Part shown: positions 39,729-59,527 of the stretch, one piece after another
Layout of the letters: each line of letters opens with the position of its first letter
Numbering within the stretch: position 1 is the stretch's first letter
DNA from: an uncultured Candidatus Binatia bacterium
GTDB lineage: Bacteria > Desulfobacterota > Binatia > Bin18
DNA length: 64,000 bases
Assembly (NCBI GenBank): GCA_965200965.1
Contig: OZ241744.1
Location: 736,001 to 800,000, forward strand
Reading direction: 5' to 3'
The notes under the pieces: generated by a model
The model's database searches: none
The model's input: only the letters and a program-made list of their open reading frames with translations
Told to the model about the DNA's origin: nothing
Position numbers and translations under genes: made by a program

Positions 39729-40292
39729 CTATTTCGCCCGTGAGAGATAGTTGCCCGTCTCGGTATCAACCCGGACGGTTTCTCCAATTTCAATAAAACC
39801 AGGTACGCGGACCACCAGCCCGGTCTCGGTCGTGGCTGGTTTGAGTTCATTGTTGACGGTTGCGCCCTTGAGCGAGGGGGGGGTGTCCTCAACCCTGAGG
39901 TCTACGGTCTTGGGCAGAGAAATGCCGACCGGCTGGCCGCCGTGCAGTTCGACCTTGAGCATCAGATGAGGCGTCAAATAGTAGACCGCCCCGCCGAGGC
40001 TGTCCTGTGACAGCTCGATTTGTTCATAGCTCTGGGTATTCATGAAGTGGTAGGTGCCGCCCGATTCGTACAGATACTGCATCTCCTGCTGGTCGAGCAC
40101 CGCCCGCTCGATTTTCTCGTCTGAGCGAAACTTGTTTTCGGTCTGGAGACCGGTACGCAGGTTGCGCAGCTTGGTCTGGACAAAGCCGCGTTTATTGCCC
40201 GGAGTGATGTGGATGAGCTCCATCACACGATGGGGGGCATCGTGATACAGGATCAGCGTTCCCACCCGCAGCTGGGTTGCCTGTACAAACAT
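39729..40292 (-). CDS. efp: Translation elongation factor P (PGNKR loop variant)
   Basis: HITPGNKRGFVQTKL, YHFMN..SYEQ, KPATTETG, VPGFIEIGE..RVDT..G.Y..R. Confidence 0.92.
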   Translation of the reverse strand: MFVQATQLRVGTLILYHDAPHRVMELIHITPGNKRGFVQTKLRNLRTGLQTENKFRSDEKIERAVLDQQEMQYLYESGGTYHFMNTQSYEQIELSQDSLGGAVYYLTPHLMLKVELHGGQPVGISLPKTVDLRVEDTPPSLKGATVNNELKPATTETGLVVRVPGFIEIGETVRVDTETGNYLSRAK

Positions 40293-40318
40293 AGGGAGAG
40301 CCTCCGTTGAGAAATACC

Positions 40319-40735
40319 TCAGTGTAACTGATCTTCGGGCGGTGCCGGCGGGGCAAAAATCGGCGAGCCGTGGTGATGGACCATCAGCCATGCCCCAGTC
40401 CGCTTTTCAAAGATATTCGTGCTCAGTACCTGAGAGCGGGAGCCACCGCCCGTGCCGCTCGATTCGAAATTTTCGATCAACACGACCCAGGCCAGGTCGC
40501 CCACCACCTCAACCCGGACATCGCTCAGGGTAAATCGCATCGACTCCGTATGGGCAAAGATCCGCTCCCAGCTGGCCATCACCGGTCCCCAGCCGCCCAA
40601 CAGCGGCCAGCCCGGATGGACACATGTAATGTAGCTCTCTTGCAGCCACCGCTTTTCCATCTCGCCCATCTCCAGCGTCTCAAAGGCGTGATAGAAAGCC
40701 CGGTTAGCGGCCAGCACGGCCTTGTGTTCGTCCAT
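40319..40735 (-). CDS. SnoaL/NTF2-like family protein
   Basis: ANRAFYHAFE, CVHPGW..L.G...V.ASW, TNIFE...G.W.MVHHHGS. Confidence 0.8.
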   Translation of the reverse strand: MDEHKAVLAANRAFYHAFETLEMGEMEKRWLQESYITCVHPGWPLLGGWGPVMASWERIFAHTESMRFTLSDVRVEVVGDLAWVVLIENFESSGTGGGSRSQVLSTNIFEKRTGAWLMVHHHGSPIFAPPAPPEDQLH

Positions 40736-40877: not shown

Positions 40878-41078
40878 ATGGAATTGCCTCAATGTCGCCA
40901 ATGCAGTCAGGGGGTTCTCGTGCCTCTGTCCGACTTTGGGCCGCACGGCGCATCGCTCGAATACAAGGTCTGGGTGTGTATTCAGCCGCGCTGCGGATTC
41001 ACCATCCGCATTGATAAAGGCGTGGTGGTCTACGGCTATAAAATCTCCGCGGAGCGACGGCGGGGCAGCGATTATTAG
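40878..41078 (+). CDS. Small putative zinc-ribbon protein
   Basis: 66 aa with CRQC...CIQPRC; AAGGGGAG RBS; fills the gap before the CoA-transferase. Confidence 0.65.
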   Translation: MELPQCRQCSQGVLVPLSDFGPHGASLEYKVWVCIQPRCGFTIRIDKGVVVYGYKISAERRRGSDY

Positions 41079-41093
41079 GGGCGAGGTGCTCCG

Positions 41094-42290
41094 GTGAAAC
41101 ATGCACTCCAGGGGGTAAAGGTCCTCGATCTTACCCAGGTCATGGCGGGGCCGTTTTGCAGCCTGTTGCTGGGGGACCTTGGGGCTGAGGTGATCAAGAT
41201 CGAGCCGCCGAGTGGCGATTCAACGCGCGGCATGGGCGGACGCCAGGGCCGCGAGAGCACGGCATTCTGGGCCGTCAACCGCAACAAACGCGGCATGGTC
41301 CTCAACCTCAAACACCCCCAAGCCCAAGAGCTGGCCCGCAAGCTGGCAGCCTGGGCCGACATCTGGGTTGAGAACTATCGTCCGGGCGTCATGGACGCCT
41401 TTGGCCTGGGCTATCCCGAGCTGCGCCAACTCAACCCGGGCCTGATCTATGCCTCGGTATCGGGCTTTGGGGCCACCGGACCGTATGCCACCCAGGGCGG
41501 CTTTGACCTCATCGCTCAGGGCATGTCGGGCATTATGTCAGTGACCGGAGAAGCGGGCCGCCCGCCCGTCAAATGTGGCGTACCGATTACCGATCTGGCC
41601 GCGGCCCTGTTTACCACCCAGGCGGTTCTGGCCGCCTACATCCATCGCCACAATACGGGTCAGGGACAGCATATCGACACCTCGCTGCTCGAAGCCGGCA
41701 TCGCCCTCTCGATCTGGGAATCAACCCAGTATTTTTCGCGGGGAGAGATCCCCGAAGCAATGGGCTCGGCCCACCGCATGTCCGCCCCGTATCAGGCTAT
41801 CAAATGCGCCGACGGCTACATCACCCTCGGCGCGGCCAACACCCGCACCTGGCAACGCTTTGCCCAGGCCATTGGCCGCCCCGAGCTGCTTGAGCGGCCG
41901 GAGTACAAAAACGAGCGGCAACGGGTCCTCAACCGCCATCGCCTGACCCAGGATATTGAAGCCGTGACTGGCACACAGCCCCGCGCACACTGGCTGGCTG
42001 CACTCAAAGAAGCCGGCGTACCGTGTGGGCCGATCCTCAACTATGCCGAAGTCTTTGCCGATCCGCACATTCAGGCTCGCGGCATGGTGCAGGAGATGGA
42101 GCATCCGGTCGGGGGCACGGTCCGGGTGCTGGGCCCGGCGGTGAAACTGTCCGAGACGCCGGCCCGCCTCAGCCGGCGCTCGCCCTTATTTGGCGAGCAT
42201 ACGGCCGAGATCATGCGCGAGCTGGGCTATGCGGAGGCCGAGATCCAGGCCCTGAGCCGGGCCGGCGCGGTGGTGCTGGGAGAGGCTTAG
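41094..42290 (+). CDS. CaiB/BaiF (family III) CoA-transferase
   Basis: VLDLTQVMAGP, NRNKR, ENYRPG, SGFGATGP, PITDLAAA, GQHIDTSL. Confidence 0.92.
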   Translation: MKHALQGVKVLDLTQVMAGPFCSLLLGDLGAEVIKIEPPSGDSTRGMGGRQGRESTAFWAVNRNKRGMVLNLKHPQAQELARKLAAWADIWVENYRPGVMDAFGLGYPELRQLNPGLIYASVSGFGATGPYATQGGFDLIAQGMSGIMSVTGEAGRPPVKCGVPITDLAAALFTTQAVLAAYIHRHNTGQGQHIDTSLLEAGIALSIWESTQYFSRGEIPEAMGSAHRMSAPYQAIKCADGYITLGAANTRTWQRFAQAIGRPELLERPEYKNERQRVLNRHRLTQDIEAVTGTQPRAHWLAALKEAGVPCGPILNYAEVFADPHIQARGMVQEMEHPVGGTVRVLGPAVKLSETPARLSRRSPLFGEHTAEIMRELGYAEAEIQALSRAGAVVLGEA

Positions 42291-43027
42291 TGCTGGGCCA
42301 GGAGTTGCGCGCCATAGATGAACGCTACGCCGGCCAGGGTGGCGACCGGCAGCAGCCGGGACTGGCTGGCGTCATGGGCAGCCGGCAGCAGGCTGCTGGC
42401 ACCAAGATAGACAAACACCCCGGCAAACCAGCCCAGCAGTAAGGCCAGATGCGGGGTGGCCAGTGTGACATAGGCGTGCAGCCACACGCCCAGGAGAGGG
42501 GCCAGGGCGGTCAGACCCAGCGCACCGGTGGTGGCTCGGGTCGAGTGTCGGGTGCCGAGCATCAGACCGGCAACGCTGGCCCCGTCGGCCAGTTTATGCA
42601 GGGCCACGCCAAGCCCAATCGCCCAGCCGAGTTGGTCATGGATGTGAAACCCTTTGCCAATAGCAAAGCCGTCAAGCAGGCTGTGGACCATAATCCCCAT
42701 CGCTCCCAGCAGCCCGGCGTGGGGGGCGTGAGCGTGGTGGGCTTCCCGCTCTTGCGGGGTTTCCCGGTGGTGGGTAGCATACTCAAGGATGTAGAAACAC
42801 AGGAAGCCGAGCACGCAGGCGAGGTGCAGGTGATGGTGGTGGAGGGGGCTGTCAGCCGACTCCAGGAGGTCCTGGGCTTCGGGCAGGAGCTCCATCAGGC
42901 CGCCAGCCATCAACGCCCCGGCGCAGAAGGCGAACAGCACGCCCTGGCAGGAGTGGAAACGCAGGGCCAACAGCCCGCCGGCCAGGGTCAGGGTGCCTGT
43001 CGCGCCGGCAACCCAGAGAGCAATCAT
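42287..43027 (-). CDS. ZIP family divalent metal transporter
   Basis: HSLLDG (TM4) and LHKLADG (TM5) metal motifs, His-rich loops, LLP.AH. Confidence 0.85.
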   Translation of the reverse strand: MIALWVAGATGTLTLAGGLLALRFHSCQGVLFAFCAGALMAGGLMELLPEAQDLLESADSPLHHHHLHLACVLGFLCFYILEYATHHRETPQEREAHHAHAPHAGLLGAMGIMVHSLLDGFAIGKGFHIHDQLGWAIGLGVALHKLADGASVAGLMLGTRHSTRATTGALGLTALAPLLGVWLHAYVTLATPHLALLLGWFAGVFVYLGASSLLPAAHDASQSRLLPVATLAGVAFIYGAQLLAQH

Positions 43028-43048
43028 AAGGGCAAGGAGAGTATACTA

Positions 43049-43065
43049 TTGCGATACAGTTGCAA
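43049..43065. promoter_or_regulatory. Putative Fur-family operator upstream of ZIP
   Basis: TTGCGA-TACAG-TTGCAA palindrome next to TATACT (-10 on the minus strand); flank ATACTATTGC shared with 48277-48286. Confidence 0.6.
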
Positions 43066-43098
43066 ACGGCCCGGTCTCCCGGCTTTTGCCTTGCCAAC

Positions 43099-43956
43099 TT
43101 ATCCATTCGCCATTCTCCATTGACGGACCAGCCAGCCAGCCACCACCAGCAGGCACAGGCCGGCCGCGGCCATCTGCCCGGGCGGGGAGTCATAGTGGTT
43201 GGCCAGGACAAAGGCCGGCACGCCGGTGGCCAGCGAGACGGCCGGGGCGACGACAAACATCTGCCGACTTTCTCGACATATGTTCTTGGCCGTCAGGGCC
43301 GGCAACACCAGATTGGCAAAGCTGAACACCACGCCGGAGACATGGATGGAAAACCCGACCGCCAGCCCCAGCCAGACCGCAATCAGGCCGTTCCCCAGCT
43401 CGACCCGCAGGCCGACCGCGCGGGCCATTGCGGGGTCAATGACCAGCAGCAGGGCTTGACGGGAACAGCCCCACAGCGTTGTGGCCGTGACCAGCAGCAG
43501 GGCGGCAAAGACCCACACATCGGCCGGTCTGGCACCGATGATGGTGCTGGAGGACAGGCGGTTGATCTCTTCCATGCCGATTGGGCTGTGGGCCATCAGC
43601 AGGATGGACAGGCTGACCGACACCAGAAAGACCCAGCCGGTGAGGGCTTCGTGGGTTTCGTGGCCGCGGCTGCCGCCGGCCGTCAGCAGGGCGGCCAGCA
43701 CCGCAAACAGGCCGCCCATTGCCGAGTGGAAGAGGTCGGAGCGCCACCAACTGTGGGCATCGTGGCTGAGGAGATTGCCCAGCCAGATGCCGACAGCAAT
43801 GCCCAGCATGGACGCCTCGGAGACTGCCGCGCCGATGAAAATCTGGTCCCGGGCCACTACCAGGACACCAATCAGGGCCAGCAGCAGGCCGATCAGCCAG
43901 CCGGACACATAGGCGTGCTGAAACAGCGGCCATGTGTCAACAAAGCTGCCGATCAC
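43099..43956 (-). CDS. Metal (Zn/Mn) ABC transporter permease (ZnuB-like)
   Basis: IGVLVVARDQIFIGAAVSEASMLGIA, DPAMARAVG, LVLPALTA; many TMs. Confidence 0.85.
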   Translation of the reverse strand: MIGSFVDTWPLFQHAYVSGWLIGLLLALIGVLVVARDQIFIGAAVSEASMLGIAVGIWLGNLLSHDAHSWWRSDLFHSAMGGLFAVLAALLTAGGSRGHETHEALTGWVFLVSVSLSILLMAHSPIGMEEINRLSSSTIIGARPADVWVFAALLLVTATTLWGCSRQALLLVIDPAMARAVGLRVELGNGLIAVWLGLAVGFSIHVSGVVFSFANLVLPALTAKNICRESRQMFVVAPAVSLATGVPAFVLANHYDSPPGQMAAAGLCLLVVAGWLVRQWRMANG

Positions 43957-44696
43957 GCCAGACTCCCGACCTCGGCCCGGACCTGGGCCGTGGCTGCCCG
44001 ACCGTAGAGCTGTTCGAGCTTGTCGGCGCTCAGCATCTCGTCCCGCCGGCCGGCCGTCAGCGTCCCGCCGGCAACAAGCCCGATATGGGTGGCGTAGCGC
44101 ACCGCAATCGTCAGCTTATGGGTCACAACCAGGACGGTGTTCCGTTCCTCGGCGTGCAGGCCGGCCAGGGTGTGCAGGAACGCCTCTTCCATTGCCAAGT
44201 CAAGATGGTTGGTCGGCTCGTCAAGGAGCAGGAGTGCTGGCCGCCGGACCAGCGCCCGGGCCACCAGGGCACGCTGACGCTGGCCGCCGGACAGCGACCA
44301 GTAGTCCGTGGCGGCCAGGCCGGCCAGCCCCATTTTGTCCAAAGCCCAGGCCAGGTGCTGGCGCTGCTCGGCCCGGGTCAAGCGGATGCCAACCAGTCCC
44401 AGCCGGGCAAACTCGCCGACGGTCATGGGCAGGCTGAGGTTGATAGCGCAGCTCTGGGGGACAAAGCCGGTGCGCTCCTGCCAGCCCGATTGGGGATGAA
44501 ACGCCAGCCGTCCGACCTGGGGCTGGAGCAGTCCCAACAGGCCGGCCAACAGGGTGGTTTTGCCGGCTCCGTTTTGGCCCAGGAAGCACCAGAACTCGCC
44601 GGCACGGACGCTCAGATTCACGTCGCTGAGAACGGTCTTGCGGCCATAGCCGAGGGACAAGGCCCGGGTTTGCAGGACAATGGCTGGACCTTCCAT
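43953..44696 (-). CDS. Metal ABC transporter ATP-binding protein (ZnuC-like)
   Basis: GQNGAGKTT, GFVPQ, LSGGQRQR, LLLDEPTNHLD, VVTH. Confidence 0.88.
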   Translation of the reverse strand: MEGPAIVLQTRALSLGYGRKTVLSDVNLSVRAGEFWCFLGQNGAGKTTLLAGLLGLLQPQVGRLAFHPQSGWQERTGFVPQSCAINLSLPMTVGEFARLGLVGIRLTRAEQRQHLAWALDKMGLAGLAATDYWSLSGGQRQRALVARALVRRPALLLLDEPTNHLDLAMEEAFLHTLAGLHAEERNTVLVVTHKLTIAVRYATHIGLVAGGTLTAGRRDEMLSADKLEQLYGRAATAQVRAEVGSLA

Positions 44697-44698
44697 GT

Positions 44699-45103
44699 CT
44701 AAGTCGGGGCCGGCTGGTCGGCCTGCCGGCAGTGCAGACAGGTCTGGCACAGGCGTCGGTTCAGGAGATGGCTGGTGGCCAGGATGACTGCGCCGGTGGC
44801 CACCAAGGGGATCTCTTGGGCGTCGTACAGCCGGCCGGCGGTAATCGCCACCACCGCCGCGGCCAAGAGTGACAGGGGCCGGCCGCTTTTATGCAACCGG
44901 AATCCCCAGCATAGATTGCTCAGCGCCAGGATGACGGCAAAGCTCAACAGCACCACTTCTGTCATGGTGTCGACCAGGAAGCTCAGACCGGACACTGCCA
45001 AGACCGGTCCCAGAAGCGGGGTGAGCAGGCAATGGACGGCGCAGGCCAGGGACAGCCCGGCTCCGAGCTGATCGAGCCGCGGGCAGAAGGGAGCGTGATT
45101 CAT
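44699..45103 (-). CDS. MerC-domain membrane protein
   Basis: LDQLGAGLSLACAVHCLLTP, GFRLH, SHLLNRRLC; four TMs. Confidence 0.8.
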   Translation of the reverse strand: MNHAPFCPRLDQLGAGLSLACAVHCLLTPLLGPVLAVSGLSFLVDTMTEVVLLSFAVILALSNLCWGFRLHKSGRPLSLLAAAVVAITAGRLYDAQEIPLVATGAVILATSHLLNRRLCQTCLHCRQADQPAPT

Positions 45104-46128
45104 GGTGTCCTTCCCAGGGCCGCGGACAGTTGTGTGATGTTATAGTCAAGCATGGCGAGATAGCTGTCTGTGCCGGGCCGTGAAGCGACTTGGTCGGCCA
45201 TGTTGACGATGGTCGCGTCGGTATGCTCGGCCACAAATGCGGCATAGCGGGGGTTGTAATAGGCCGCGGCCAGAATGGCTTTGCCCTGCTTGGCCTGTAT
45301 CAGCTCGATGACGGTCTGCATGTGGCTGGTCGTGGGCGGCAGACCGGGCAGGGGCTCGAGGTAGGCAATGACATTCAGGCCGAACACGGGTGCAAAATAG
45401 GGCCAGGCGTTATGGTCGCCAACGACGTTTGCCCCGGAATGGGGCTGCATCAGGCCCAGCCAGCCGGCCAACAGGGCTTCTTCATCCTGGCTGCTGAGGA
45501 ACGCGGCCAGCCGGCCGCGTTCGGCCAGCAGGGCCAGTTTTTCAAAGTCGTACTTGTTGAAAAGCGCTTCGCCGACCAGGGCGACGCCGAGCCGGCGGCG
45601 GAAATCCTGGTAGCGCCGGGCAAAGTCCTGGCTGGCGCTCGGGCGCAGGGCCGACAGCCGGTCGCGGAGCAGGCCGGCAACGCGCAGGCCGTTCAGCGGG
45701 TTCAGCAGGTAGTGGGGGTTGCCGCGGGGATGGATATCGCCCAGAGACCGATCGACCGGTGTGCTTGGAACCTCAAGCGGAGCAATGGCGACCGAGGCAT
45801 CGATATAGCCTGGTCTGCCGGTCTGCACCCGGGCGTTACGCGAATTGAGCAGCAGGGGAGGTGCCCAGCCGACCTCCAGGTCGAGGCCGATCTGGACATA
45901 GGCGTCACAGCGACTCAGGGCTGTGATGAAGCTCGGCTTGGGAACAACAAAGTGGGCATCCTCCGTGCCTGTGGCAAACACGGTGACTGCAAGCTGCTCG
46001 CCGCCAACCTCGCGTGCCAGGCTGCCCAGCTCGGGCACGGTCGCACACAACTGGAGGGGCTGGGCGTAGGCCGGGGCGGTCAGGCCAAGACTGAGAAGAC
46101 CGAAGATGATAATACGGATGCTGAACAT
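45100..46128 (-). CDS. Metal ABC transporter substrate-binding protein (ZnuA/TroA-like)
   Basis: Signal peptide, EDAHFV, GLDLEVGW, GDIHPRGNPHYLL, EPLPGLPPT; AGGAGG RBS. Confidence 0.88.
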   Translation of the reverse strand: MFSIRIIIFGLLSLGLTAPAYAQPLQLCATVPELGSLAREVGGEQLAVTVFATGTEDAHFVVPKPSFITALSRCDAYVQIGLDLEVGWAPPLLLNSRNARVQTGRPGYIDASVAIAPLEVPSTPVDRSLGDIHPRGNPHYLLNPLNGLRVAGLLRDRLSALRPSASQDFARRYQDFRRRLGVALVGEALFNKYDFEKLALLAERGRLAAFLSSQDEEALLAGWLGLMQPHSGANVVGDHNAWPYFAPVFGLNVIAYLEPLPGLPPTTSHMQTVIELIQAKQGKAILAAAYYNPRYAAFVAEHTDATIVNMADQVASRPGTDSYLAMLDYNITQLSAALGRTP

Positions 46129-46138
46129 TGGAATCCTC

Positions 46139-47797
46139 CTAGAAGGTATGGGCCGGATGCGCCCCGTACAGCCACTCAAAGCCGAGCCATACGCTGTGAG
46201 CCTTGGAGTCGAGATGCGAGGCGTCATCAAAGTTGTACTGGAGGCGGATGCGCGAGAACTCTGAGGGCCGCCACGACAGCAGCGGGGAGAAGCGGTGGCG
46301 ATCGTCCCGAAAGGGGTCGTTCCGCCGACCGCGGATGCTGGGACCGCTGCCGCCGGCATACTCATAGCGCAGGCCGGCCGCCCAGCCGTAGCGAAAGCCG
46401 TATAGCAACTGGGTGTATAGGCCCCAGTCTGTCAGGGTCCGGCTGTGCAGGGTATCTTCATGTTCGGGGGTGTAGCGGTCGGCGTGAAAATCGCGCCGCA
46501 TGAGTTCGGTCTGCCAGCTCAGGAAGGGCCAGCCGCGGAAATTGCCGCTGGGGTTCCAACGCCACTTCATGTCCAGGCCGTAGAGCCAGGTATCGCCGTC
46601 GTCGCCGGTCGCATTTGGTCCGTACAGCCCTGAGACGCCGAATACCCCGGTGATGTCGTTGCTGAGATTGATTGAGTTGTTCCAGCGGGCCAGGTACACA
46701 AAGTCGCCAAACCCGTCAAAGACATTCCGGCCGGCCGGCCGGCAGCCGATCAGAGCGCACTCAAGGGCATGGCCGTTCCCGTTGGCGTGTTCATCTTCAT
46801 CGGCGTGCTCGTCTTCATCGGCGTGTTCATCTTCATCGGCGTGCTCGTCTTCATCGGCGTGCTCGTCTTCATCGGCGTGCTCGGCCTCGTCATGCCCTCC
46901 GCCGGCGTGACTGTGGCGTTCACCCCGGAAGCTGGTCATATTGACCCCGTTGGCGTTTTGCATGCCAAAGTGCAGCTCTGAGAACCACGGGGTGGGCGCG
47001 AGCCACGAGGCGCGGAAGCCGGTCTGGCGCATGCCGTCGCCGCCGAACAGGCGCGAGTTGATGATCGGCTGGTCAACCCAGTCCCACTGGTGGGGGTGCT
47101 GGGTGTTGATCTGGCCGAATTCGGTAAAAAAGTGACCCACTTCAAGCTGTAAATTGTAGGGCAGGGAGGTGCTGGTCAGAAAGGCTTCTTCAAGCTCGGT
47201 ACTGGTTTCACCCTCAACCGGGTCAATGGCGGTAATCAGATACAGGTCACCCCGAAAATAGGGGTCAATTGCCCCGCTCAGAGCCAACTCGGCCTGTCCG
47301 AGGGTGAAGCCGCGCTTATTCGGCTCATGCGCCCCGTTCTGGAGGGTAGACAGGGCCTCACCTTTTTCGCTTGAGCCGCCGGCGTAGAACAGGACATCGG
47401 CCGCTACATCAATCAGGCGTAGCCGGCTGCCACCGCCCAGGGTTCGTGACCACAGCCCCTCGGGCCGGGGGGCGAGCAGGGGTTGGCGGCCTTCGGCCTC
47501 GATGTCCTGAATGGCTTTGTCGAGCGGGGATTCAATTTGGGCGGCAAGGGCATCCGCCCGTCGTTTGCGGACCGCTTCAAGCTGTTGTTGTCTGCGTTTC
47601 TCGCTGGCCGTGGCCTCTTGCTGCATGGTGAGAATTGCGCTCTGCAACTGTTCAACGGTCTGCTGGAGGCTCTGGACCTGTTCTTTGAGGGCTTGGACCT
47701 CGGACGAGTCATCGGCTCGGACGTTCGGTGCGGCGAGGAGCAGCATCGCGGCACCACACATGAGCCGGCACAAGAGTCGTGTGTCTGTATTCTTCAT
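46139..47797 (-). CDS. Putative outer-membrane beta-barrel metal receptor/porin with coiled-coil N-terminus and His/acid repeat loop
   Basis: Signal peptide, coiled coil, ELALSGAIDPYF, NTQHPHQWDWVDQP, WRPSEFSRIRLQY, terminal GAHPAHTF. Confidence 0.75.
   Translation of the reverse strand: MKNTDTRLLCRLMCGAAMLLLAAPNVRADDSSEVQALKEQVQSLQQTVEQLQSAILTMQQEATASEKRRQQQLEAVRKRRADALAAQIESPLDKAIQDIEAEGRQPLLAPRPEGLWSRTLGGGSRLRLIDVAADVLFYAGGSSEKGEALSTLQNGAHEPNKRGFTLGQAELALSGAIDPYFRGDLYLITAIDPVEGETSTELEEAFLTSTSLPYNLQLEVGHFFTEFGQINTQHPHQWDWVDQPIINSRLFGGDGMRQTGFRASWLAPTPWFSELHFGMQNANGVNMTSFRGERHSHAGGGHDEAEHADEDEHADEDEHADEDEHADEDEHADEDEHANGNGHALECALIGCRPAGRNVFDGFGDFVYLARWNNSINLSNDITGVFGVSGLYGPNATGDDGDTWLYGLDMKWRWNPSGNFRGWPFLSWQTELMRRDFHADRYTPEHEDTLHSRTLTDWGLYTQLLYGFRYGWAAGLRYEYAGGSGPSIRGRRNDPFRDDRHRFSPLLSWRPSEFSRIRLQYNFDDASHLDSKAHSVWLGFEWLYGAHPAHTF
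46784..46882. repeat. 18-bp coding tandem repeat (about 5.5 copies) encoding (EHADED)n
   Basis: Unit GGCGTG(T/C)TC(A/G)TCTTCATC repeated head to tail. Confidence 0.95.
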
Positions 47798-47959
47798 TAT
47801 GCTCTTCCTGTTGGTGAAGAGGGACGACGCCGAGCGGCACGCGGCAGCATCAACTCCACTATCCCGGTTCCAACAAGGGGCGGGCATGGAGACTGAGGCC
47901 AAGCGGGCCGACTGTGTCGCCTCACTCGGTGGGTCGGTGCCGGCGTTATGGGCCGGCGA

Positions 47960-48274
47960 TCAGGACAGTAGGGATGACCCAACAGGGGGTGCGCGTGGGG
48001 AGGCCGGGCGGCGATGGCTGGCCGGGGCATGGTCATCAGCCGCCGGGCATGGGGCCGAAACGGGAAACAGATGGGCAGAGACAGTGGGGGTCCGAGCCGC
48101 AAGGGCGGGGCTCTGCCCGCCGGCCAGACACAGCACACAGGCGTACCCGCCGGGACTGCCAACAGCCCCGCTATGGATGTGGGCGGCGGTGGCGGAAGAT
48201 ACCCATACGAGGGCGAGCAGGCTCAGCAGGGCGAGACTTTTCCACCACAGTACTGTGATCTGTTTTTGCTGCAT
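47960..48274 (-). CDS. DUF2946-like leader ORF (signal peptide, HxH, CxxC, C-terminal RAPP)
   Basis: MQQKQITVLWWKSLALLSLLALVWVSSATAAHIH...CVLC...Pro-rich...PASPRAPP; first ORF after the promoter. Confidence 0.72.
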   Translation of the reverse strand: MQQKQITVLWWKSLALLSLLALVWVSSATAAHIHSGAVGSPGGYACVLCLAGGQSPALAARTPTVSAHLFPVSAPCPAADDHAPASHRRPASPRAPPVGSSLLS

Positions 48275-48276
48275 GG

Positions 48277-48315
48277 ATACTATTGCAATTCTATAGTAAA
48301 TATATGTCGTGTCAA
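48277..48315 (-). promoter_or_regulatory. Sigma70 promoter (TTGACA-16-TAGAAT) overlapped by a putative Fur-family box
   Basis: Minus strand -35 at 48310-48315 and -10 at 48288-48293; box TTGCAA-TTCTA-TAGTAA at 48283-48299. Confidence 0.6.
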
Positions 48316-48356
48316 GAGGCGTGACACAGATGCTCCAAGGGCCGGGGAGGGTGCTG

Positions 48357-49064
48357 TCAGGGAGCGTGCGGGTATTCGTGGCGCAAGACCTTGATGTCGT
48401 ACAGTATGTGTTCAACGATCCCTGTCTCATTGCCCCGATAGTAGGCGCGGATGCGAAACTCCGGGTCAATGAGCACAAAACGGTCGCTGTGGACGATTCG
48501 TTCGGGCCGCTCGGCCTGTCCGTGGCCGGCATGAGATCCTTCTGGCGGCGCATTCATCATCGCCAACTGAAAGCCGTCTCTGACCAGGGGCTGAATGTTG
48601 TTCAGTTCACCGGTCAGAAAAACCCAGCGCTTGGCATCTGCGCCATATCTGTCGGCATAGCCGCGGAGCCGCGGCGGCGTGTCCCATTCTGGATCAACGC
48701 TGAAGGAGACCAGGCGAACCAGGGGCTGGGCGGTCTCTTCAAGCCTGGTTTGCAACTGCGCCATCCGGGCCGACAACAGAGGGCATACGCCGGGGCAGCG
48801 GGTAAACACAAAATTTGCCACCCACATATGGCCGGCCAGCGTCTGGCGGCCAAAAGGCTGACCGCGCTGGGTCAGCAGACGAAAGTCCGGGACGGTCTGG
48901 TGGACTGGTAAACGGTCCGGCGAGCCGGGCCGCGGCGGTGTAGCAAAGCGCTGCCAGACCAGGACGCCGCTCATCCCCAGCAGGACGACAAACAAGAGCC
49001 GCCGGACGAGCCTGAGGAGGCGCAGGGGAGTGAAGGAGGCGGGCGCGCTCGGGGCATTCATCAC
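48357..49064 (-). CDS. SCO1/SenC family copper chaperone
   Basis: N-terminal TM, FTRCPGVCP (CxxxC), SVDPEWDTP, IVHSDRFVLID. Confidence 0.9.
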   Translation of the reverse strand: MMNAPSAPASFTPLRLLRLVRRLLFVVLLGMSGVLVWQRFATPPRPGSPDRLPVHQTVPDFRLLTQRGQPFGRQTLAGHMWVANFVFTRCPGVCPLLSARMAQLQTRLEETAQPLVRLVSFSVDPEWDTPPRLRGYADRYGADAKRWVFLTGELNNIQPLVRDGFQLAMMNAPPEGSHAGHGQAERPERIVHSDRFVLIDPEFRIRAYYRGNETGIVEHILYDIKVLRHEYPHAP

Positions 49065-50455
49065 GGATTTTTCCAGGTACCCTTCCCGGTGAAGGGATAC
49101 GGAAGCAGATGGTCTTCCGCCCGCAAGTCGTGGATGGAGCCACAGCCGAGGAGGCGCAGGGTATCCTCCATTTCTTTTTTCAGGATGGCAAATGCCTTGC
49201 GCACGCCGGCTTCGCCACCGGCCCCAAGTCCGTAGATATATGCCCGTCCGGCCAGCACGGCATCGGCACCGTGGGCCAGGGCAATGACCACATCTGCGCC
49301 CGACCGTATGCCGCCGTCTAACAGAATCTTCGTCGCCGAGCCTTTCAGTTCGGCCGCAATGTCTTTGAGCATGTACAAGCTCGGGTAGACCCGGTCCATC
49401 TGGCGTCCGCCGTGGTTGGATATGACAATGGCATCAGCACCGTGGGCAACCGCCAGCCGGGCATCTTCAACGCACTGGACCCCCTTGATAATAATCGGCT
49501 TCTCCTCCCCCCAGATGTGCCGAATCCAGGCCAGATGCTGCCAGGTGACGACCGAAGCGCGCAGTTGCGTCCCAATATCGGCGTAGGGCATTGGCCGCCC
49601 GTCGTTCTGGATCACATTCCTGAACTGCATCATCCCGCCGTCGGCATAGAAGCTCGTCAGCCAGGAGAGATGCCGTATCATCTGGGGTGCGAATTGCAGT
49701 TTCTGGAATGGCGTGCCGTGTATCGCTTGCGGGGCACCCATCCATTCATGCTGGGCGCGGTTCCCAGGCACCGCGGTGTCAATGGTGAGAACCAGGGCAG
49801 AGTAGCCGGCGTTTTTCGCCCGCTCAATGCCTCTGGCCGCTACTTCTTTGCCACCAACCAGATAGAGCTGATACCAGCACGGACCTTTTGAGGCCGCCCT
49901 GACCTCTTCCAGGTCAGTGCCGGTCAGCGTTGAGAGCGTGTATATCGTTCCGGCTTCACCGACAGCCTTGGCCGCGACAGCCTCTCCGTGGGGCCAGAGC
50001 AGCCTGGGGCTGCCTATCGGTCCGGCGATAACGGGCAAGTCAATGGTATGGCCCAGAAGTTCGGTCCGCATCTCCACGCCGCTGAGCTGTACCCCGGCCC
50101 TGGGCTTAAAACGTTCTCGTTGAAAGGCCGTGACGTTATCTCTGAGGGTGATCTCATTATCGGCACCGCCGCGATAATACTCCCTGACAATTGGGGGCAC
50201 GCGCTTCTCCATGACCTGGCGGAGATGATCCACGGTGACACATGTGTCTACTGCTCTGGCCCAGCGCGCAAGGCTTCTGGCGTGGGCGCGCTGGAGGCAG
50301 GGCTGAAGCAGACGCAGTCCAAGGCTTCGCCCACCTGGACGAAGACCGCTATGTTCGGCGGGGACTCCGGTTTTCTCAGCCGCCGTTGAAGACACAGGCG
50401 GCGGGCCTTGAGCGAGGGGAGATGGTTGAGGGTCGGCCATACGACGGGACTCCAT
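49061..50455 (-). CDS. FMN-dependent alpha-hydroxy acid dehydrogenase (L-lactate dehydrogenase LldD-like); start uncertain
   Basis: YYRGGADNE, WYQLY, LTIDT, IIKGV, ISNHGGRQMD, DGGIRSGADV, GRAYIYGL. Confidence 0.88.
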   Translation of the reverse strand: MESRRMADPQPSPLAQGPPPVSSTAAEKTGVPAEHSGLRPGGRSLGLRLLQPCLQRAHARSLARWARAVDTCVTVDHLRQVMEKRVPPIVREYYRGGADNEITLRDNVTAFQRERFKPRAGVQLSGVEMRTELLGHTIDLPVIAGPIGSPRLLWPHGEAVAAKAVGEAGTIYTLSTLTGTDLEEVRAASKGPCWYQLYLVGGKEVAARGIERAKNAGYSALVLTIDTAVPGNRAQHEWMGAPQAIHGTPFQKLQFAPQMIRHLSWLTSFYADGGMMQFRNVIQNDGRPMPYADIGTQLRASVVTWQHLAWIRHIWGEEKPIIIKGVQCVEDARLAVAHGADAIVISNHGGRQMDRVYPSLYMLKDIAAELKGSATKILLDGGIRSGADVVIALAHGADAVLAGRAYIYGLGAGGEAGVRKAFAILKKEMEDTLRLLGCGSIHDLRAEDHLLPYPFTGKGTWKNP

Positions 50456-50599
50456 ATCTGCTTGGGCCTAGATAGCCGAAGTTCGGCGCTGAGTAAAGAA
50501 AAATTGGATACAGGCCCCGATGAATATGTGGGCCCGGTTCTCATTGCAAAAAGGAAGCACCCCTTATACGATAGCATAAGACACAAGGGGCAGGTCACA

Positions 50600-51046
50600 A
50601 TGAAGTCATCTCAGCGCTCTCATCCAGTGGGCGACATACGCGCCGCTATTCGGGCTGCCGGGCTGCGTAGCACCATGTCCCGGGTTGCGGTGCTGAGCTA
50701 TCTGCAATCGGTGACAACCCCGCTCAGCCACGCCGAAATTTTTTATGCGCTGGAAGGACAGGGGGTTGACCGGGCCACGGTCTATCGCAACCTGGTTGAC
50801 CTGACCGAGGCCGGCCTGCTGGTACGGACCGATGTCGGCGACCATGTGTGGCGCTTTGAGTTGCGCCGGGCCGGCCAGACCGAGCGTCAGACCGAGCACC
50901 CGCACTTCATGTGTACCGACTGCGGCGGAGTCGAGTGCCTGCCCGAGATCCAGGTGCGGATTAAGCCGACCGCGGCCATCCCGCGCTCGGTGCGCGCGCA
51001 GCAGGTCGAGATGCACTTCAAGGGCCTGTGTGACCGGTGCGCCTAG
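50600..51046 (+). CDS. Fur-family transcriptional regulator (Zur-like by context)
   Basis: GLRSTMSR, DRATVYRNL, HPHFMCTDC, GLCDRC. Confidence 0.88.
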   Translation: MKSSQRSHPVGDIRAAIRAAGLRSTMSRVAVLSYLQSVTTPLSHAEIFYALEGQGVDRATVYRNLVDLTEAGLLVRTDVGDHVWRFELRRAGQTERQTEHPHFMCTDCGGVECLPEIQVRIKPTAAIPRSVRAQQVEMHFKGLCDRCA

Positions 51047-51128
51047 CTGGCTACCGGGCAGGGGAACTTCCGTTGCGGGAATCTTCGTGTATGATAGCCG
51101 CTTCCACAGGGGAAGGAGTACGAGACCG

Positions 51129-51443
51129 ATGGCAAGCCGCATCCGAAAAAACGACATGGTTCAGGTCATGGCCGGCAAAGACAAGGGCAAGACAGGCGAG
51201 GTGCTCCAGGTTTTTCCGAAAAAAAACCGGGCCACGGTCCGTGGTCTGAATATGGTCAAACGCCACCTCAAGCCGAACCAGCAACGGCAGCAGGGTGGCA
51301 TTGTTGAGAAAGAAGCGCCTCTGCACCTCTCCAACGTCATGCCGCTTGACCCCGAGGACGGCCGTCCGACCCGGGTCGGGTTCAGGATTGCCGAAAGGAA
51401 GAAGGTCCGCGTCAGCAGACGGACCGGCAAAGTGCTTGACTAG
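51129..51443 (+). CDS. rplX: 50S ribosomal protein L24 (orphan, Cys-free)
   Basis: IRKNDMVQVMAGKDKGKTG, GGIVEKEAPLHLSNV, PTRVGF; AAGGAG RBS. Confidence 0.92.
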   Translation: MASRIRKNDMVQVMAGKDKGKTGEVLQVFPKKNRATVRGLNMVKRHLKPNQQRQQGGIVEKEAPLHLSNVMPLDPEDGRPTRVGFRIAERKKVRVSRRTGKVLD

Positions 51444-51452
51444 CGCGTGCGG

Positions 51453-51608
51453 CTATTTCAGGCGGGTTTCCTTGTAGATGACGTGTTTGCGGGCAACCGG
51501 GTCGTATTTTTTGAGTTCCAGTTTATCCGTCATGGTCTTTTTGTTTTTGGTCGCAATGTAGAAGTGGCCGGTGCCGGCTGACGATTCCAGTTTGATTTTT
51601 TCGCGCAT
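51453..51608 (-). CDS. rpmG: 50S ribosomal protein L33 (C-minus form); not in the ORF track
   Basis: Manual translation: [51 protein letters not shown]. Confidence 0.93.
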
Positions 51609-51626
51609 CGTTCGTCCCTCCCTTGC

Positions 51627-51863
51627 CTACACTTTGATGCCGCGCCGGCGCATGTCTCTCAACACCCGCTCAATGCCCAGCTTGTCAATCGTCCGAATCC
51701 CGCGTGCGCTCAGGCGCAGGCGCACCCAGCGTTTTTCGTTCGCCACCCAGAACTTATGGGTCTGCATGTTTGGAAGAAAACGCCGTTTTGTCTTATTGTT
51801 GGCGTGGGATACATTATTCCCGGTACGCGGGCGTTTGCCAGTGACTGGACACAGTCTTGACAT
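51627..51863 (-). CDS. rpmB: 50S ribosomal protein L28 (long C-minus form)
   Basis: [30 protein letters not shown]...[11 protein letters not shown]. Confidence 0.95.
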
Positions 51864-51947
51864 GAAAACGTCTCCTCAGGATTGTCTTGTCGCCGGCCTG
51901 TATAGCATGGCCGGCCGCGGAGGGCCAGGGTGGGCAGCCCGGTCGGC

Positions 51948-54068
<2,121 letters not shown>

Positions 54069-54078
54069 GGCGGGGCGG

Positions 54079-56670
54079 CTACTCATCAACAGAGAAGCGG
54101 CCTTCCCAGATGGGGCCTGCCCCGGGCACATACTGGCCGGTCCTGATGGACCTGAGGGCGTACTTGGGGAGTTCGCGGATCGCAAGGCATTGTTGCCCGG
54201 CCTGCCGGCCGGCCTCTGTGAAGCGAAAGTCAAGGTTGTCGAACCCGTACTGCTGGCGATTGTCGGGCAGGTCGTTCTCGTCAACCGGGATCAGGTGCAG
54301 GAAGAATATGGGGTCCATGTCATCTCCGCCGCATGGCTCTTTAACATATATCAGGGCATTTTTGTTGATATAAATATCGTATTTGGAGCGGAGGATGGGC
54401 TGGCCGGCCTCTGTGATCAGTCTGTCAAGATCTGCCAGGCTTGGCCGTGCCAGCATAACGTGGTCAAGCATGATGTGACCTCCGTGACTTCGTTCATGGT
54501 CAAAGAGTTCCAGTTGTAGACGCTTGCCGGCGACGGCGGATAGTGGGGAGACGATCAGGTCGAACTCTTCAGCACGCTCGCCGCTTGGGCTGCTCCACTC
54601 GCCAGCCCCGTACCAAACCGCAGCTTCTTCGCCATCGGCCAACAAACGCAACCCGACACGAGACCCCGATCCACCGGCGAGCAGAAATACCAGAGATTGG
54701 TCGGCTTTTGCGGTGAACGCTGGCGAGAGCGCCTTTCCGGTAGTCTTATCGCCGTGGTCTGGGTGATAGCTCGTCAGAAAGCCGGGGCCAACATGCCCGA
54801 AAATCGGCAGTTGGCCCGTGTAGAATGTCTGCTGGCCGTGGTTGGTCATTGCCTCGCCTGTGACCTGCCAGCCGTCCATGCCACCCTCGAAGCGTCCGAG
54901 AAACTGCTCGCCAACAAAGTGGAAGTAAGGCTTGACGCTGAAACGATTGTCGGCAGGCCGGGTCATCGAAAAGCGGCTCCTGGCCCGCAGGTCGCGGCCG
55001 ACAAAATGCTCGTTGACCCACTGATGATCGCCAGCACTAAAGGGCATCCATAGCTCGGGGCCGATTTTCAGAGCATAGTGTGCGCTGGCGAGGGCCTCAG
55101 CTTGGTTGGAGGCAGAAGGATAGGGACGAAAGTTGACGCCGCGTCGCTGGAGATATCCCGGGGGAGGAAAGCGGTCGTGTGCCATGATCCGCTCGTGGTT
55201 GGGACGCGTGACCGGATTGTGCGCCACCGTCGCGTCAGCCAAACCATTGACGTCAATGATTGTCAGGTCTCGGAGATAATAGGGCGAGACGCCAATGGAG
55301 GCGAGGGCTGCCACGGCATTGTCGGGAATCACCCCAGGTTCCAGCTTCTCGTACTCCTTCCATCCCGCTATCCGCTCGGTGAGCGCGTGTTGGAAAAGCC
55401 CGGCGCGTAATCCGACGAACTGGCGGGCAGACTGCTCGCGCAGGGCGTTGGAGATGGCGACGAGTGCTGGCATCCCCGGCGCGGTGAGCAGCCAAGCCGC
55501 GTTCTTTTCATTGAGTTCGATGGAGAGCCTGCCGGGGAGGAAGCGAAGCCCGTCGTCTTTGAACAGTAAAGCGCCTTGAAGTGCGCCAGCATAAAACAGC
55601 ACTGGCACAAAGAGAACCAGGCTGAACGCCCTCGGTCCGGCCCACCGGGTCCATGAAGAAGTCGTTCGGAGGCGATTCGATATCCCGGAGGCGAGGTGCG
55701 TGATGCCCTCGGCTCCGGGGACCGCCAGTAGAGGCCAGTAAAAGTCCAGCGGGCGATACTCAAAAACATCGCCGCCTATGCGCATCAGGTAGAGTACATG
55801 GAAGGAGATGCAGAGCAGCCCCAGGGCGTAAGTCCCGTCTCTATAGCCTATCCAGCGTTTTCGCACGGCCACGCACGCGAGTGGAATTAGCAGGTATAGG
55901 CCGGTCTCCAGCACCGCGGCCCAGAGATAACGAAAGCCGGACTCGTACCACGGTCGCACATGCTTGGCATAGTAGGTATTTGGCAGCCATGCGCCGTAAT
56001 ACCCGTAGCGGAACAGAAAATGGGCTGCGATAAGGACGAAGAACGGCCCTGCCAGAAATATCGCCTCCCGCCAGTCCAGCCGGTGGGCGGTGAGGAGACG
56101 GTGGGCGGCGAACCAGCCGAAACAGCAGGCCGCCAGCATGAGACCCTCGGGGCGGGTCAGGGCGGCGGCAGCCAGGCTCAGCGACGCTATCAGCAGTCCC
56201 CAGGGCCTGTCTCTGTGAATGCCCAGGCAGACCACCGCCACGACAATGAAGAACGTAAATTGCCGCGTTTCCAGTCCGCCGCCCGAGGTCCATACGGCAA
56301 AGGTCGCGCTGCTGCACACCAGACCCAGCCCCATCCAGGCGACGAGGCCCCTGTTCGGCAGGGAGGGCATCCGGGCGATCCACCACAGCATCACGGCCAC
56401 AGTTCCGCCTGTGTAGCCTACCGATAAGCACGGCGCGGCGTCTTCCGGGCGCACGCCAAGGATTCCCCATATGGCCGCAAGCTCCAGAATCCACAGGAAG
56501 TTGGTATAGCCCTCCACATACTCGCCCGGATTGAACACCAGGCCGTTGCCCTCGATCAGGTTGCGGGCGTAACGAAAGCTGATGAAGGCGTCATCGGTGA
56601 AAAACTCGGCCACCCCGGCGAGCCCCCCCAGTAAGGCCAACCACGGCAGGCAGCATAGAAGGTGGGTCAT
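54079..56670 (-). CDS. GT-C-fold membrane glycosyltransferase (arabinofuranosyltransferase-like) with periplasmic C-terminal domains
   Basis: TDDAFISFRYARNL..G.GLVFNPGEYVEGYTN, GLET, LTRPEG, LPNTYYAK, GGDVF..R, ID.NGLAD. Confidence 0.75.
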   Translation of the reverse strand: MTHLLCCLPWLALLGGLAGVAEFFTDDAFISFRYARNLIEGNGLVFNPGEYVEGYTNFLWILELAAIWGILGVRPEDAAPCLSVGYTGGTVAVMLWWIARMPSLPNRGLVAWMGLGLVCSSATFAVWTSGGGLETRQFTFFIVVAVVCLGIHRDRPWGLLIASLSLAAAALTRPEGLMLAACCFGWFAAHRLLTAHRLDWREAIFLAGPFFVLIAAHFLFRYGYYGAWLPNTYYAKHVRPWYESGFRYLWAAVLETGLYLLIPLACVAVRKRWIGYRDGTYALGLLCISFHVLYLMRIGGDVFEYRPLDFYWPLLAVPGAEGITHLASGISNRLRTTSSWTRWAGPRAFSLVLFVPVLFYAGALQGALLFKDDGLRFLPGRLSIELNEKNAAWLLTAPGMPALVAISNALREQSARQFVGLRAGLFQHALTERIAGWKEYEKLEPGVIPDNAVAALASIGVSPYYLRDLTIIDVNGLADATVAHNPVTRPNHERIMAHDRFPPPGYLQRRGVNFRPYPSASNQAEALASAHYALKIGPELWMPFSAGDHQWVNEHFVGRDLRARSRFSMTRPADNRFSVKPYFHFVGEQFLGRFEGGMDGWQVTGEAMTNHGQQTFYTGQLPIFGHVGPGFLTSYHPDHGDKTTGKALSPAFTAKADQSLVFLLAGGSGSRVGLRLLADGEEAAVWYGAGEWSSPSGERAEEFDLIVSPLSAVAGKRLQLELFDHERSHGGHIMLDHVMLARPSLADLDRLITEAGQPILRSKYDIYINKNALIYVKEPCGGDDMDPIFFLHLIPVDENDLPDNRQQYGFDNLDFRFTEAGRQAGQQCLAIRELPKYALRSIRTGQYVPGAGPIWEGRFSVDE

Positions 56671-56713
56671 GCGGACTTTTTGCAGTGTGGCGAGACAGTT
56701 TGTCACAATTGTC

Positions 56714-57003
56714 TATTTGCGTGTGGGCTGTGTGGCCGACCGGAGGCTGAGCCGGGGCGGCTACTCGTCAATAGAGAAGCGGCCTTCCCAGATGGGGCCT
56801 GCCCCGGGCACATACTGGCCGGTCCTGATGGACCTGAGGGCGTACTTGGGGAGTTCGCGGATCGCAAGGCATTGTTGCCCGGCCTGCCGGCCGGCCTCTG
56901 TGAAGCGAAAGTCAAGGTTGTCGAACCCGTACTGCTGGCGATTGTCGGGCAGGTCGTTCTCGTCAACCGGGATCAGGTGCAGGAAGAATATGGGGTCCAT
57001 GTC
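56714..57003. repeat. 290-bp direct repeat, copy 2 (includes an orphan copy of the last codons of the UbiA-family gene)
   Basis: TATTTGCGTGTGGGCTGTGTGGCCGACCGGAGGCTGA...GGGGTCCATGTC, offset 2682 bp from copy 1. Confidence 0.93.
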
Positions 57004-58788: not shown

Positions 58789-58789
58789 C

Positions 58790-59527
58790 TTAGAGATCCA
58801 GTCGTTTGAAAAGGCTCTCCGGAATGCCTCTGATGATGAGCATGATGTATTTCCAGAACCACGGCAGGTAGACCCGGGGTTTTTTCTTGCCAAGGCCCTT
58901 GACAATTCCCGCGGCGACTGTTTCGGGCCTTGCCCACAGCGGCCCTTTCTTGAACCCGGCGGTCATCGGCGTATCGACCAAACCGGGTTTGATGTCGAGC
59001 ACCTGGACACCCGACTGGTGGAGCCGGTTTCTGAGTCCCTGCAAGAGAACCGACAGCATGGCCTTGGCCGCGCCATAGACATAGTTGGACCGCCGGCCGC
59101 GTTCACCGGCTACACTGGTCATGACGGCAATGGTTCCGCTTTGCTGTCTCTCCAGTCTGTTAGCAAGGTGGGTCAGCAGCGAAGCCGTGCCGATAGCGTT
59201 GGTGTTGAGGGCTGCCAGGGTTGTGGTGAAGTCTGCTTCGCAGGCGTGTTGGTCTGGCAAGGTCCCGTGGGCGATCAGGGCGACATCAATGGTTCCGAGG
59301 GCCGCGAACGCGGCGTTGAGGGCCGCTTCGTGCGATTCAAAATCCTGAATGTCGAGCCGACCGTACTTGACCGAAGCGGCTCCTCGAATTTTGAGATCCT
59401 CAGCCAAAGACGAGAGGCGTTCCTGGTTGCGGGCTATCAGATACAGCTGGCTGCCACGCTGGGCAAAGGTTCTGGCCGTGGCTTGGGCGATGGCCGAGGT
59501 TGCCCCAATGATGAGAATATGCTGCAC
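58790..59527 (-). CDS. DprE2-like SDR (polyprenylphosphoryl-2-ketopentose reductase)
   Basis: IIGATSAIA, SVAGERGRRSNYVYGAAK, KPGLVDTPMT; directly downstream of the dprE1-like gene. Confidence 0.8.
   Translation of the reverse strand: MQHILIIGATSAIAQATARTFAQRGSQLYLIARNQERLSSLAEDLKIRGAASVKYGRLDIQDFESHEAALNAAFAALGTIDVALIAHGTLPDQHACEADFTTTLAALNTNAIGTASLLTHLANRLERQQSGTIAVMTSVAGERGRRSNYVYGAAKAMLSVLLQGLRNRLHQSGVQVLDIKPGLVDTPMTAGFKKGPLWARPETVAAGIVKGLGKKKPRVYLPWFWKYIMLIIRGIPESLFKRLDL

Follow-up and report, generated by a model that had tools for sequence, protein, structure and literature searches.

A candidate metal-gated arrest leader, probably zinc-responsive, under a likely Zur operator at the head of a Binatia metal-uptake operon

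The short gene at the head of a metal-uptake operon in the window (the whole stretch of 64,000 nucleotides of Candidatus Binatia DNA analysed here) may encode a metal-gated arrest leader, probably responsive to zinc, whose stalled ribosome would rest on codons that pair with the ribosome-binding site (RBS) of the following porin gene, beneath a likely Zur operator. We put the probability of this reading at about one-half. The promoter, operator, leader, spacer and the genes porin-znuA-merC-znuC-znuB-zip lie in one orientation. A drop in cytoplasmic zinc would take a Fur-family repressor off the operator, and the leader would then be transcribed with almost no 5′ untranslated region (5′ UTR). 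By analogy with RAPP peptides and CruR, the translating ribosome would stall with Pro96 in the P site and the hydrophobic N-terminus in the Sec channel, and the fixed 44-residue spacing would hold a His2-Cys2 site just outside the exit tunnel, possibly on the periplasmic side. The stalled ribosome is computed to cover the 5′ arm of a long-range helix, which would leave the porin RBS free and uptake on. Metal folding the His/Cys site would pull the chain and end the stall, whereupon the helix would shut the RBS and turn uptake off; after release, the untranslated message may be open to Rho.

The leader ORF (47960-48274 on the minus strand, as are all features below unless stated otherwise; ATG at 48274, stop ending at 47960) encodes a CruR/DUF2946-like candidate arrest peptide of 104 residues. 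An earlier note on this DNA had described a 104-aa ORF with a signal-like stretch, AHIH, CVLC, a Pro-rich linker and RAPP, and the minus strand does carry every one of them. Residues 14-26 (48197-48235) form a hydrophobic stretch with a 13-residue Kyte-Doolittle mean of 2.48 that may serve as a signal peptide or signal anchor. Judged by conservation, the likely metal ligands are an HxH motif (H32 and H34, with AHIH spanning residues 31-34; 48173-48181) and a CxxC motif (C46 and C49, with CVLC spanning residues 46-49; 48128-48139). The RAPP arrest motif (residues 94-97, 47984-47995) follows 44 residues past CxxC and 7 before the stop, and the intervening 44-residue linker holds 8 prolines. Within 15 codons of a stop, the 3.62-Mb genome read in six frames holds 228 R[AG]PP motifs; a CxxC stands 36-54 residues upstream in 2 of these 228 and, by eye, only the leader ORF also has a signal-like start.

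In a 24-sequence alignment of leaders, H32, C46, C49, R94, P96 and P97 are invariant and H34 is kept in at least 90%, with a mean column identity of 32%; the motifs and their spacing are conserved and the linker varies. A basic N-terminus followed by a hydrophobic stretch is found in 24/24 orthologues by hydropathy only, with Kyte-Doolittle values of 1.64-3.25. Within the genus, the leader as a whole has a dN/dS of 0.47, its metal part 0.27 and its arrest part 0.35, with 0.19 for the porin. The stretch is spanned in one piece by contigs from two studies, one of which is possibly the window's own source. Judged from these comparisons of sequence, the leader is a real gene under selection.

A porin search of 41 genomes yielded 30 loci, of which 25 carry the leader before the porin gene and one has no upstream DNA. 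A second set of 80 further loci, overlapping the first, has the leader in 53 (52 by rule and L110 by hand), with 24 loci having no leader and 3 no upstream DNA. Merging duplicates left 62 distinct leader loci. The CxxC-to-RxPP spacing is 43-46 residues in 62/62, where the search had permitted 36-56 or 38-52. The arrest motif reads RAPP in 39 loci, RSPP in 16 and RGPP in 7, substitutions of the latter types being described as arrest-type motifs (PMC12992588; PMC7897499), and the metal motif reads CxxC in 53 and CxxH in 9.

A profile search with the leader recovered 1066 representatives at E ≤ 0.001. The earlier note had placed the leader with DUF2946 proteins and asked for an HMM comparison, which supports the placement in part: the architecture and the CruR-like spacing agree, while the Pfam DUF2946/PF11162 score, the sole family match, is 11.8 bits (E 0.41) and falls under the gathering cut-off of 23.7. 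We call the leader DUF2946-like because that cut-off is missed. Matches to DUF2946 at E ≤ 1 occur in 15/24 orthologues (best 6.5e-5), and the rank-10 Atlas cluster for the leader is 48% DUF2946 (score 0.95).

The DUF2946/PF11162 prototype CruR (Bp2923 of Bordetella pertussis) is, by its published description, likewise the first gene of an uptake operon and likewise has an export signal, CXXC and, at its C-terminus, RAPP, with 45 intervening residues in CruR and 44 here; the polarity we propose, in which a stall means ON, is also that of CruR (PMC9426467). Stalling of CruR at RAPP has been shown experimentally (PMC12992588). As with CruR, the leader is its operon's first gene, has a promoter directly upstream and is followed by a long intergenic region. 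The 162-nt spacer between leader and porin that the earlier note had described is indeed present (47798-47959, porin ATG at 47797), with long stems predicted to bring its two ends together; CruR also has 162 nt (PMC9426467), likely a coincidence, since spacers range from 59 to 212 nt across the 62 loci. Unlike the leader here, CruR senses copper and heads a gene for a TonB-dependent transporter, where the window has a porin with ZnuABC/ZIP genes and the leader an extra HxH; CruR also has a 45-nt 5′ UTR in place of the very short 5′ end and Zur-type operator proposed here, and for CruR Rho termination has been shown, where the evidence here points to an RBS-sequestering helix (PMC9426467). The genes downstream of the leader are zinc-type, and not the copper-homeostasis genes that go with CruR.

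The gene that follows the leader (46139-47797) encodes an outer-membrane protein of 552 residues, whose model shows a coiled coil at the N-terminus, 16 strands and a His/Glu/Asp-rich loop (AlphaFold2 pLDDT 77, alignment-based; a single-sequence prediction reached only pLDDT 39). The best Foldseek matches are chitoporin, OmpT, OprP and DcaP, with E-values of about 1e-11 to 1e-9. The gene had been taken for an outer-membrane receptor, an identification that does not hold: the product models as a 16-strand porin without a plug, and a TonB-dependent receptor was rejected on the count of 16 strands and not 22, the missing plug domain, the absence of a Pfam TonB match and the porin folds recovered. 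On the strength of this model, the gene is a porin and not a TonB receptor. Ten relatives of the porin carry the record name ‘hypothetical’ or, once, ‘TonB-dependent receptor’. Tandem His-Ala-Asp-Glu-Asp-Glu repeats lie in a low-confidence loop (46760-46920, minus strand) and vary in length among relatives; this loop is likely metal-capturing.

Behind the porin lie genes for a ZnuA/AztC-type substrate-binding protein (45100-46128; Pfam ZnuA E 2e-33, with His at three aligned motif positions), a MerC-family membrane protein (44699-45103; Pfam MerC E 1e-20), a ZnuC/AztA-like ABC ATPase of uncertain start (43953-44750), a ZnuB/AztB-like ABC permease (43099-43956) and a ZIP/ZupT-type metal transporter (42287-43027), the last three assigned by Pfam/NCBIfam. 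For the substrate-binding protein, the best NCBIfam match is AztC, under its cut-off, and the best PDB match is a zinc uptake binding protein. A ZnuA-like gene comes next after the porin in 70 of the 72 loci with enough downstream DNA. The proposal of a Zn/Ni/Co ABC uptake operon is therefore borne out as to metal uptake, and the transporter can be narrowed to the zinc type. Here and in 29/72 loci, merC separates znuA from znuC, a placement that suggests a role in zinc-type uptake and not in mercury resistance. In many relatives a cation-efflux (CDF) gene follows znuB (L056:10941-11699, L059:10861-11520 and others); it is absent from the window.

The leader promoter has a −35 hexamer TTGACA (48310-48315) and a −10 hexamer TAGAAT (48288-48293) separated by 16 nt, and 13 nt lie between the −10 element and the ATG. 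These hexamers match the consensus at 11/12 positions; the promoter scan is by itself weak, with 2 sites found versus 0.9 expected. The TTGACA-16-TAGAAT promoter that the earlier note had seen just before the ORF is nevertheless present, with TTGAC recurring 37-45 nt upstream of the leader start in 22/27 loci (a count in which the L007 start was set wrong by 21 nt). The 13 nt from −10 to ATG, with no Shine-Dalgarno sequence, and the recurring TTGAC distance argue from sequence for a leader mRNA with a very short 5′ end (about 6-7 nt) or none. With such a short or absent 5′ UTR, polymerase and lead ribosome would be coupled as soon as the first codons are read.

Over the −10 element lies a 17-bp 7-3-7 palindrome (48283-48299, no strand assigned), a predicted operator and likely a Zur site, which ranks first among 3,620,500 genome positions scored with a matrix of 8 sites from outside the genus; the pattern was first drawn from inspection and a known motif. 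A second copy upstream of the ZIP gene (43049-43065) ranks third in the genome, and the second-ranked match (C1:3520886) falls within a called ORF, where no target gene is evident. A comparable arrangement is described for the Desulfovibrio Zur regulon, in which a 17-bp palindrome, ATGCAACnnnGTTGCAT, itself a prediction, stands before znuABC and a divergent Fur-family gene is linked (PMC545781). Compared with that predicted site, the operator at 48283-48299 has 2 mismatches to a relaxed form and differs from the strict published consensus at 6/14 positions, the latter counting against the Zur reading; the Desulfovibrio sites begin ATGCAA and the Binatia sites TTGCAA (PMC545781). The available text of that paper makes no mention of a leader peptide for the Desulfovibrio Zur regulon (PMC545781).

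A divergent Fur-family gene on the plus strand (50600-51046; Pfam FUR) likely encodes the cognate Zur, a name that rests on context because the NCBIfam Zur profile gives no match to this regulator. The Zur-type box is present in 12/15 genomes with an orthologue of this gene versus 1/12 without. CobW/COG0523 genes, a family linked to Zur regulons (PMC4176598), lie upstream in 4 loci, with a Zur-type box ahead in the 3 clearest (L059, L068 and L085). The window thus has what marks a Zur regulon at the level of sequence, a palindrome over a zinc-uptake promoter (with predicted binding) and a linked Fur-family gene. The suggestion that Fur-type repression and the leader form two layers of control fits these findings, with the qualification that the operator is Zur-like: both layers are present in sequence because an arrest-leader gene is accompanied by a predicted Fur-family operator overlapping its own promoter.

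Between the Fur-family gene and the leader lie SCO1/SenC and FMN-dependent dehydrogenase genes (48357-50455, minus strand), as also in L056. A strong box stands ahead of the dehydrogenase in L056 and a weak box at 50544 of the window, so the two genes may share the regulon. A cobalamin-independent methionine synthase-like protein with a TusA domain is encoded beside the cluster in L073 (3581-5395), and L059, L063, L068 and L080 have boxes about 4-5 kb upstream with long ORFs at the position of that gene.

That the arrest codons may pair with the porin RBS is suggested by their complementarity. In the window, a predicted long-range helix joins a 5′ arm over codons P97-V98-G99 (47979-47986), inside the stalled-ribosome footprint, to a 3′ arm (47807-47814) that overlaps the porin Shine-Dalgarno sequence AGGAAG (47809-47804). 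Across the family, cognate duplexes between stall codons and RBS are better than swapped ones in 34/44 clusters (Wilcoxon p 5e-5; L132, whose start is uncertain, was left out). Because shared GC content could give such a cognate excess, windows were slid along the leader. The pairing excess is confined to the arrest codons, with z of −3.8, −5.2 and −3.5 at −12, 0 and +12, versus 0.5 to −1.8 in the other 14 windows and 0.4 to −1.4 in the ten windows from −132 to −24. On the porin side it peaks at the RBS (z −5.7) and is weaker inside the porin gene (z −2.3 and −2.7). When a 31-nt footprint is masked, the energy to open the RBS falls most at the stall site (mean −2.8 kcal/mol), and an effect of at least 1 kcal/mol is seen in 22/44 clusters there versus 7/44 at −60 nt. 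A synonymous pyrimidine excess is strongest in the codons from RxPP to the stop (33/44, p 4e-5). Pairing of the arrest codons with the porin RBS is therefore well supported, by sequence comparison, as a conserved RNA feature of the family.

In the window itself the long-range helix has 8 base pairs and a probability of about 9%, versus about 90% for a local hairpin. Within the genus its 6-pair core is kept in 7/7 members, with only one-sided G-U changes and no two-sided change, and it shows no excess over shuffles. Its effect in this genome is predicted to be near zero. Since the helix persists as 8 base pairs and its predicted effect is small, the leader here likely acts as a weakened fine-tuner, with Zur dominant.

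The competing local hairpin over the porin RBS (47802-47821; −6.5 kcal/mol alone) had been put forward as the gate, and it does form, with a pair probability of about 0.9, covering AGGAAG. We regard it as scarcely credible that this hairpin serves as the gate and that a stalled ribosome melts it, on the pattern of CutF or SecM. The hairpin lies 198 nt from the arrest codon, and masking the stall site in the window changes RBS opening by −0.2 to −0.3 kcal/mol (+0.1 to −1.4 over different window choices), so the mask is practically without effect. The porin RBS is of median openness (closure of 9.6 versus a genome median of 9.7 kcal/mol over 60 genes). The hairpin appears lineage-specific: local pairing of the Shine-Dalgarno sequence is 0.46 in the window, at most 0.14 in the other 22 loci and 0.00 in the nearest relative, and the hairpin is not found in the genus consensus fold. 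RNA folding of 47770-48010 gives a z of −0.55, which is not unusual.

CutF of Rhodobacter capsulatus is alike in being an exported Cys-motif leader with a Pro-rich end and in controlling the next gene's RBS through RNA structure, and unlike in having CxxxC and PPP, in that copper induces stalling, and in its target, a detoxifying oxidase (10.1101/2022.11.11.516240; 10.1101/2025.02.05.636593). As CutF is described there, the polarity proposed for the present family would be the opposite, and the helix here spans 80-249 nt; a local RBS stem-loop within reach of the stalled ribosome, the CutF arrangement, is not what is found in the window. SecM, ApdA and ApdP share RAPP/RAGP-type arrest and a stall that prevents a structure from hiding the downstream Shine-Dalgarno sequence, and differ in monitoring protein export and having no conserved metal site (PMC7897499). 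By comparison with these systems, the leader would be CruR-like in anatomy and polarity and CutF/SecM-like in output.

The same leader and stall could instead act through Rho-dependent termination in the spacer, with the stalled ribosome shielding a C-rich site, an output that can coexist with the helix. We regard termination as a somewhat unlikely explanation, with several observations behind it. Rho is encoded in the genome, and a possible Rho loading site (47950-48027; 41 C and 18 G in 78 nt) places C-richness at the arrest codons in the top 2.6% (51/1960 gene ends score as high). C exceeds G in the first 40 nt of the spacer in 37/44 clusters, the spacer is long and variable, as in CruR, and RBS coupling is weak in this genome. 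Against this, the linker C excess derives from amino-acid choice and not from synonymous sites (the C-G difference to the porin is not significant), and termination does not predict the partner-specific RBS complementarity. A consensus scan of the spacer found no intrinsic terminator, and an Rfam search over 41000-52000 turned up no riboswitch, its 2 matches being at chance level.

Zinc is probably the signal, given the zinc-type cargo, the Zur-type box, the CobW neighbours, the His2-Cys2 ligands and the box in leader-less loci. That the leader senses copper, nickel or cobalt, for example to close import under a toxic competitor, with the two layers reading different metals, is unlikely. In its favour we count that cleavage ahead of HxH could, as we assume, create a Cu/Ni-type N-terminal site. 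The SCO1/SenC gene directly upstream of the leader also counts against zinc, and SCO lies upstream in 7/80 loci as well as here. CruR shows a response to Cu and only a slight one to Zn (PMC9426467), and the CxxC of tested DUF2946-family members binds copper; His-rich CutF-like proteins have been proposed as Ni/Co sensors (10.1101/2022.11.11.516240; 10.1101/2025.02.05.636593). The ZnuA-type cargo in 70/72 loci, the Zur-type boxes and the CobW neighbours speak against another metal, as do the confinement of SCO linkage mostly to this genus and the finding that, among close loci, the leader is lost only where the box is present. A His2-Cys2 finger that folds with zinc can release an engineered arrest peptide, on a shorter tether (PMC4571824).

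A signal with RAPP is also the anatomy of Sec-monitoring peptides, and RAPP alone is insufficient for arrest (PMC7897499); disulfides feature in the CutF model (10.1101/2022.11.11.516240; 10.1101/2025.02.05.636593). The peptide might accordingly monitor secretion or disulfide status in the manner of SecM, its His and Cys forming no regulatory metal site. We consider this very improbable in view of the invariant His and Cys at a fixed distance, the CxxH in 9/62 loci and the metal-uptake operon downstream.

Returning to the reading of a metal-gated leader beneath a likely Zur operator, the distribution of the two elements among relatives bears on how they are related. The leader is missing in one genus member and in 20 related loci; in 21/21 of these close leader-less loci a box lies 29-60 nt ahead of the porin start (with partly circular scores), as if both controls read the same signal. 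Three distant loci have neither leader nor box. Coupling of at least 1 kcal/mol occurs in 23/34 box-less versus 1/9 box-bearing clusters (p 0.003, with kin not independent), a comparison that omits L026, L091, L095 and L111 (promoter off the contig) and takes L008 as box-positive by hand for its second site. On a quick porin tree, where the long rows L030, L026, L038 and L042 are unreliable, the leader-less state needs 3 changes, all inside one 27-row clade that also holds 10/13 leader-plus-box rows. Because these states cluster in one clade, the comparisons of coupling with box are not independent and may reflect a clade effect.

We tentatively suggest that the Binatia retain a handover, in leader-only, leader-plus-box and box-only states, from a zinc-sensing arrest switch working through the arrest-codon/RBS helix; such a switch, if real, would be a protein-based stand-in for a zinc riboswitch. 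Quite improbable is the further step that the leader is already a relic here, with Zur having taken over and the RNA switch decaying ahead of deletion. Coupling near zero in 8/9 box-bearing clusters, set against 23/34 coupled among the box-less, would fit a relic, as would the losses already seen in one genus genome and 20 related loci through 3 tree changes. The motifs, spacing and helix core are, however, kept in 7/7 leader-bearing genus members, with dN/dS of 0.27-0.35 in the motif regions, and the weak coupling may stem from the clade or from the folding model.

In L059 and similar leader-less loci, the box lies about 30 nt ahead of the porin start and overlaps an in-frame ATG-CAA-CAA situated 18 nt upstream of that start. 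This sequence resembles the leader's first codons fused to the porin RBS, the product expected had leader and spacer been cleanly deleted. Three loci from records titled Klebsiella/Enterobacteriaceae (L087, L061 and L078) group with Binatia, and their titles are probably wrong; the L087 leader is that of genome G018.

In the literature found, metal sensing by an arrest peptide has been shown only for copper. A search by title and abstract start, covering few subscription papers, found no zinc-sensing arrest leader, and by the account of the CruR paper no zinc riboswitch has been described (PMC9426467). The words ‘zinc’ and ‘ZnuA’ are absent from the supplements of that paper (PMC9426467). In the source data of a 2025 study, at least 9 similar leaders stand before ‘zinc-regulated’ outer-membrane genes, with no comment in the available text (PMC12992588), and ‘zinc’ is absent from its main text; judged from their annotation, these genes may belong to the same porin family. 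New here are the test of the helix against swapped pairs, the operator and the distribution of loci over three states. A zinc-gated leader, if confirmed, would be a post-transcriptional zinc sensor and would explain the control of znu operons that have no Zur box. The family also supplies a helix with predicted strong and weak members, together with natural leader-only, dual and operator-only loci.

Two further observations concern the surroundings of the operon. An efp gene, recognised from its translated sequence, lies about 2 kb past the ZIP gene (39729-40391, minus strand), probably by coincidence, though EF-P matters for CutF. Upstream, a UbiA-like prenyltransferase-type ORF is followed by two long membrane proteins (53112-58905, minus strand), whose near-identical C-terminal segments suggest that glycosyltransferase-like genes were recently duplicated.
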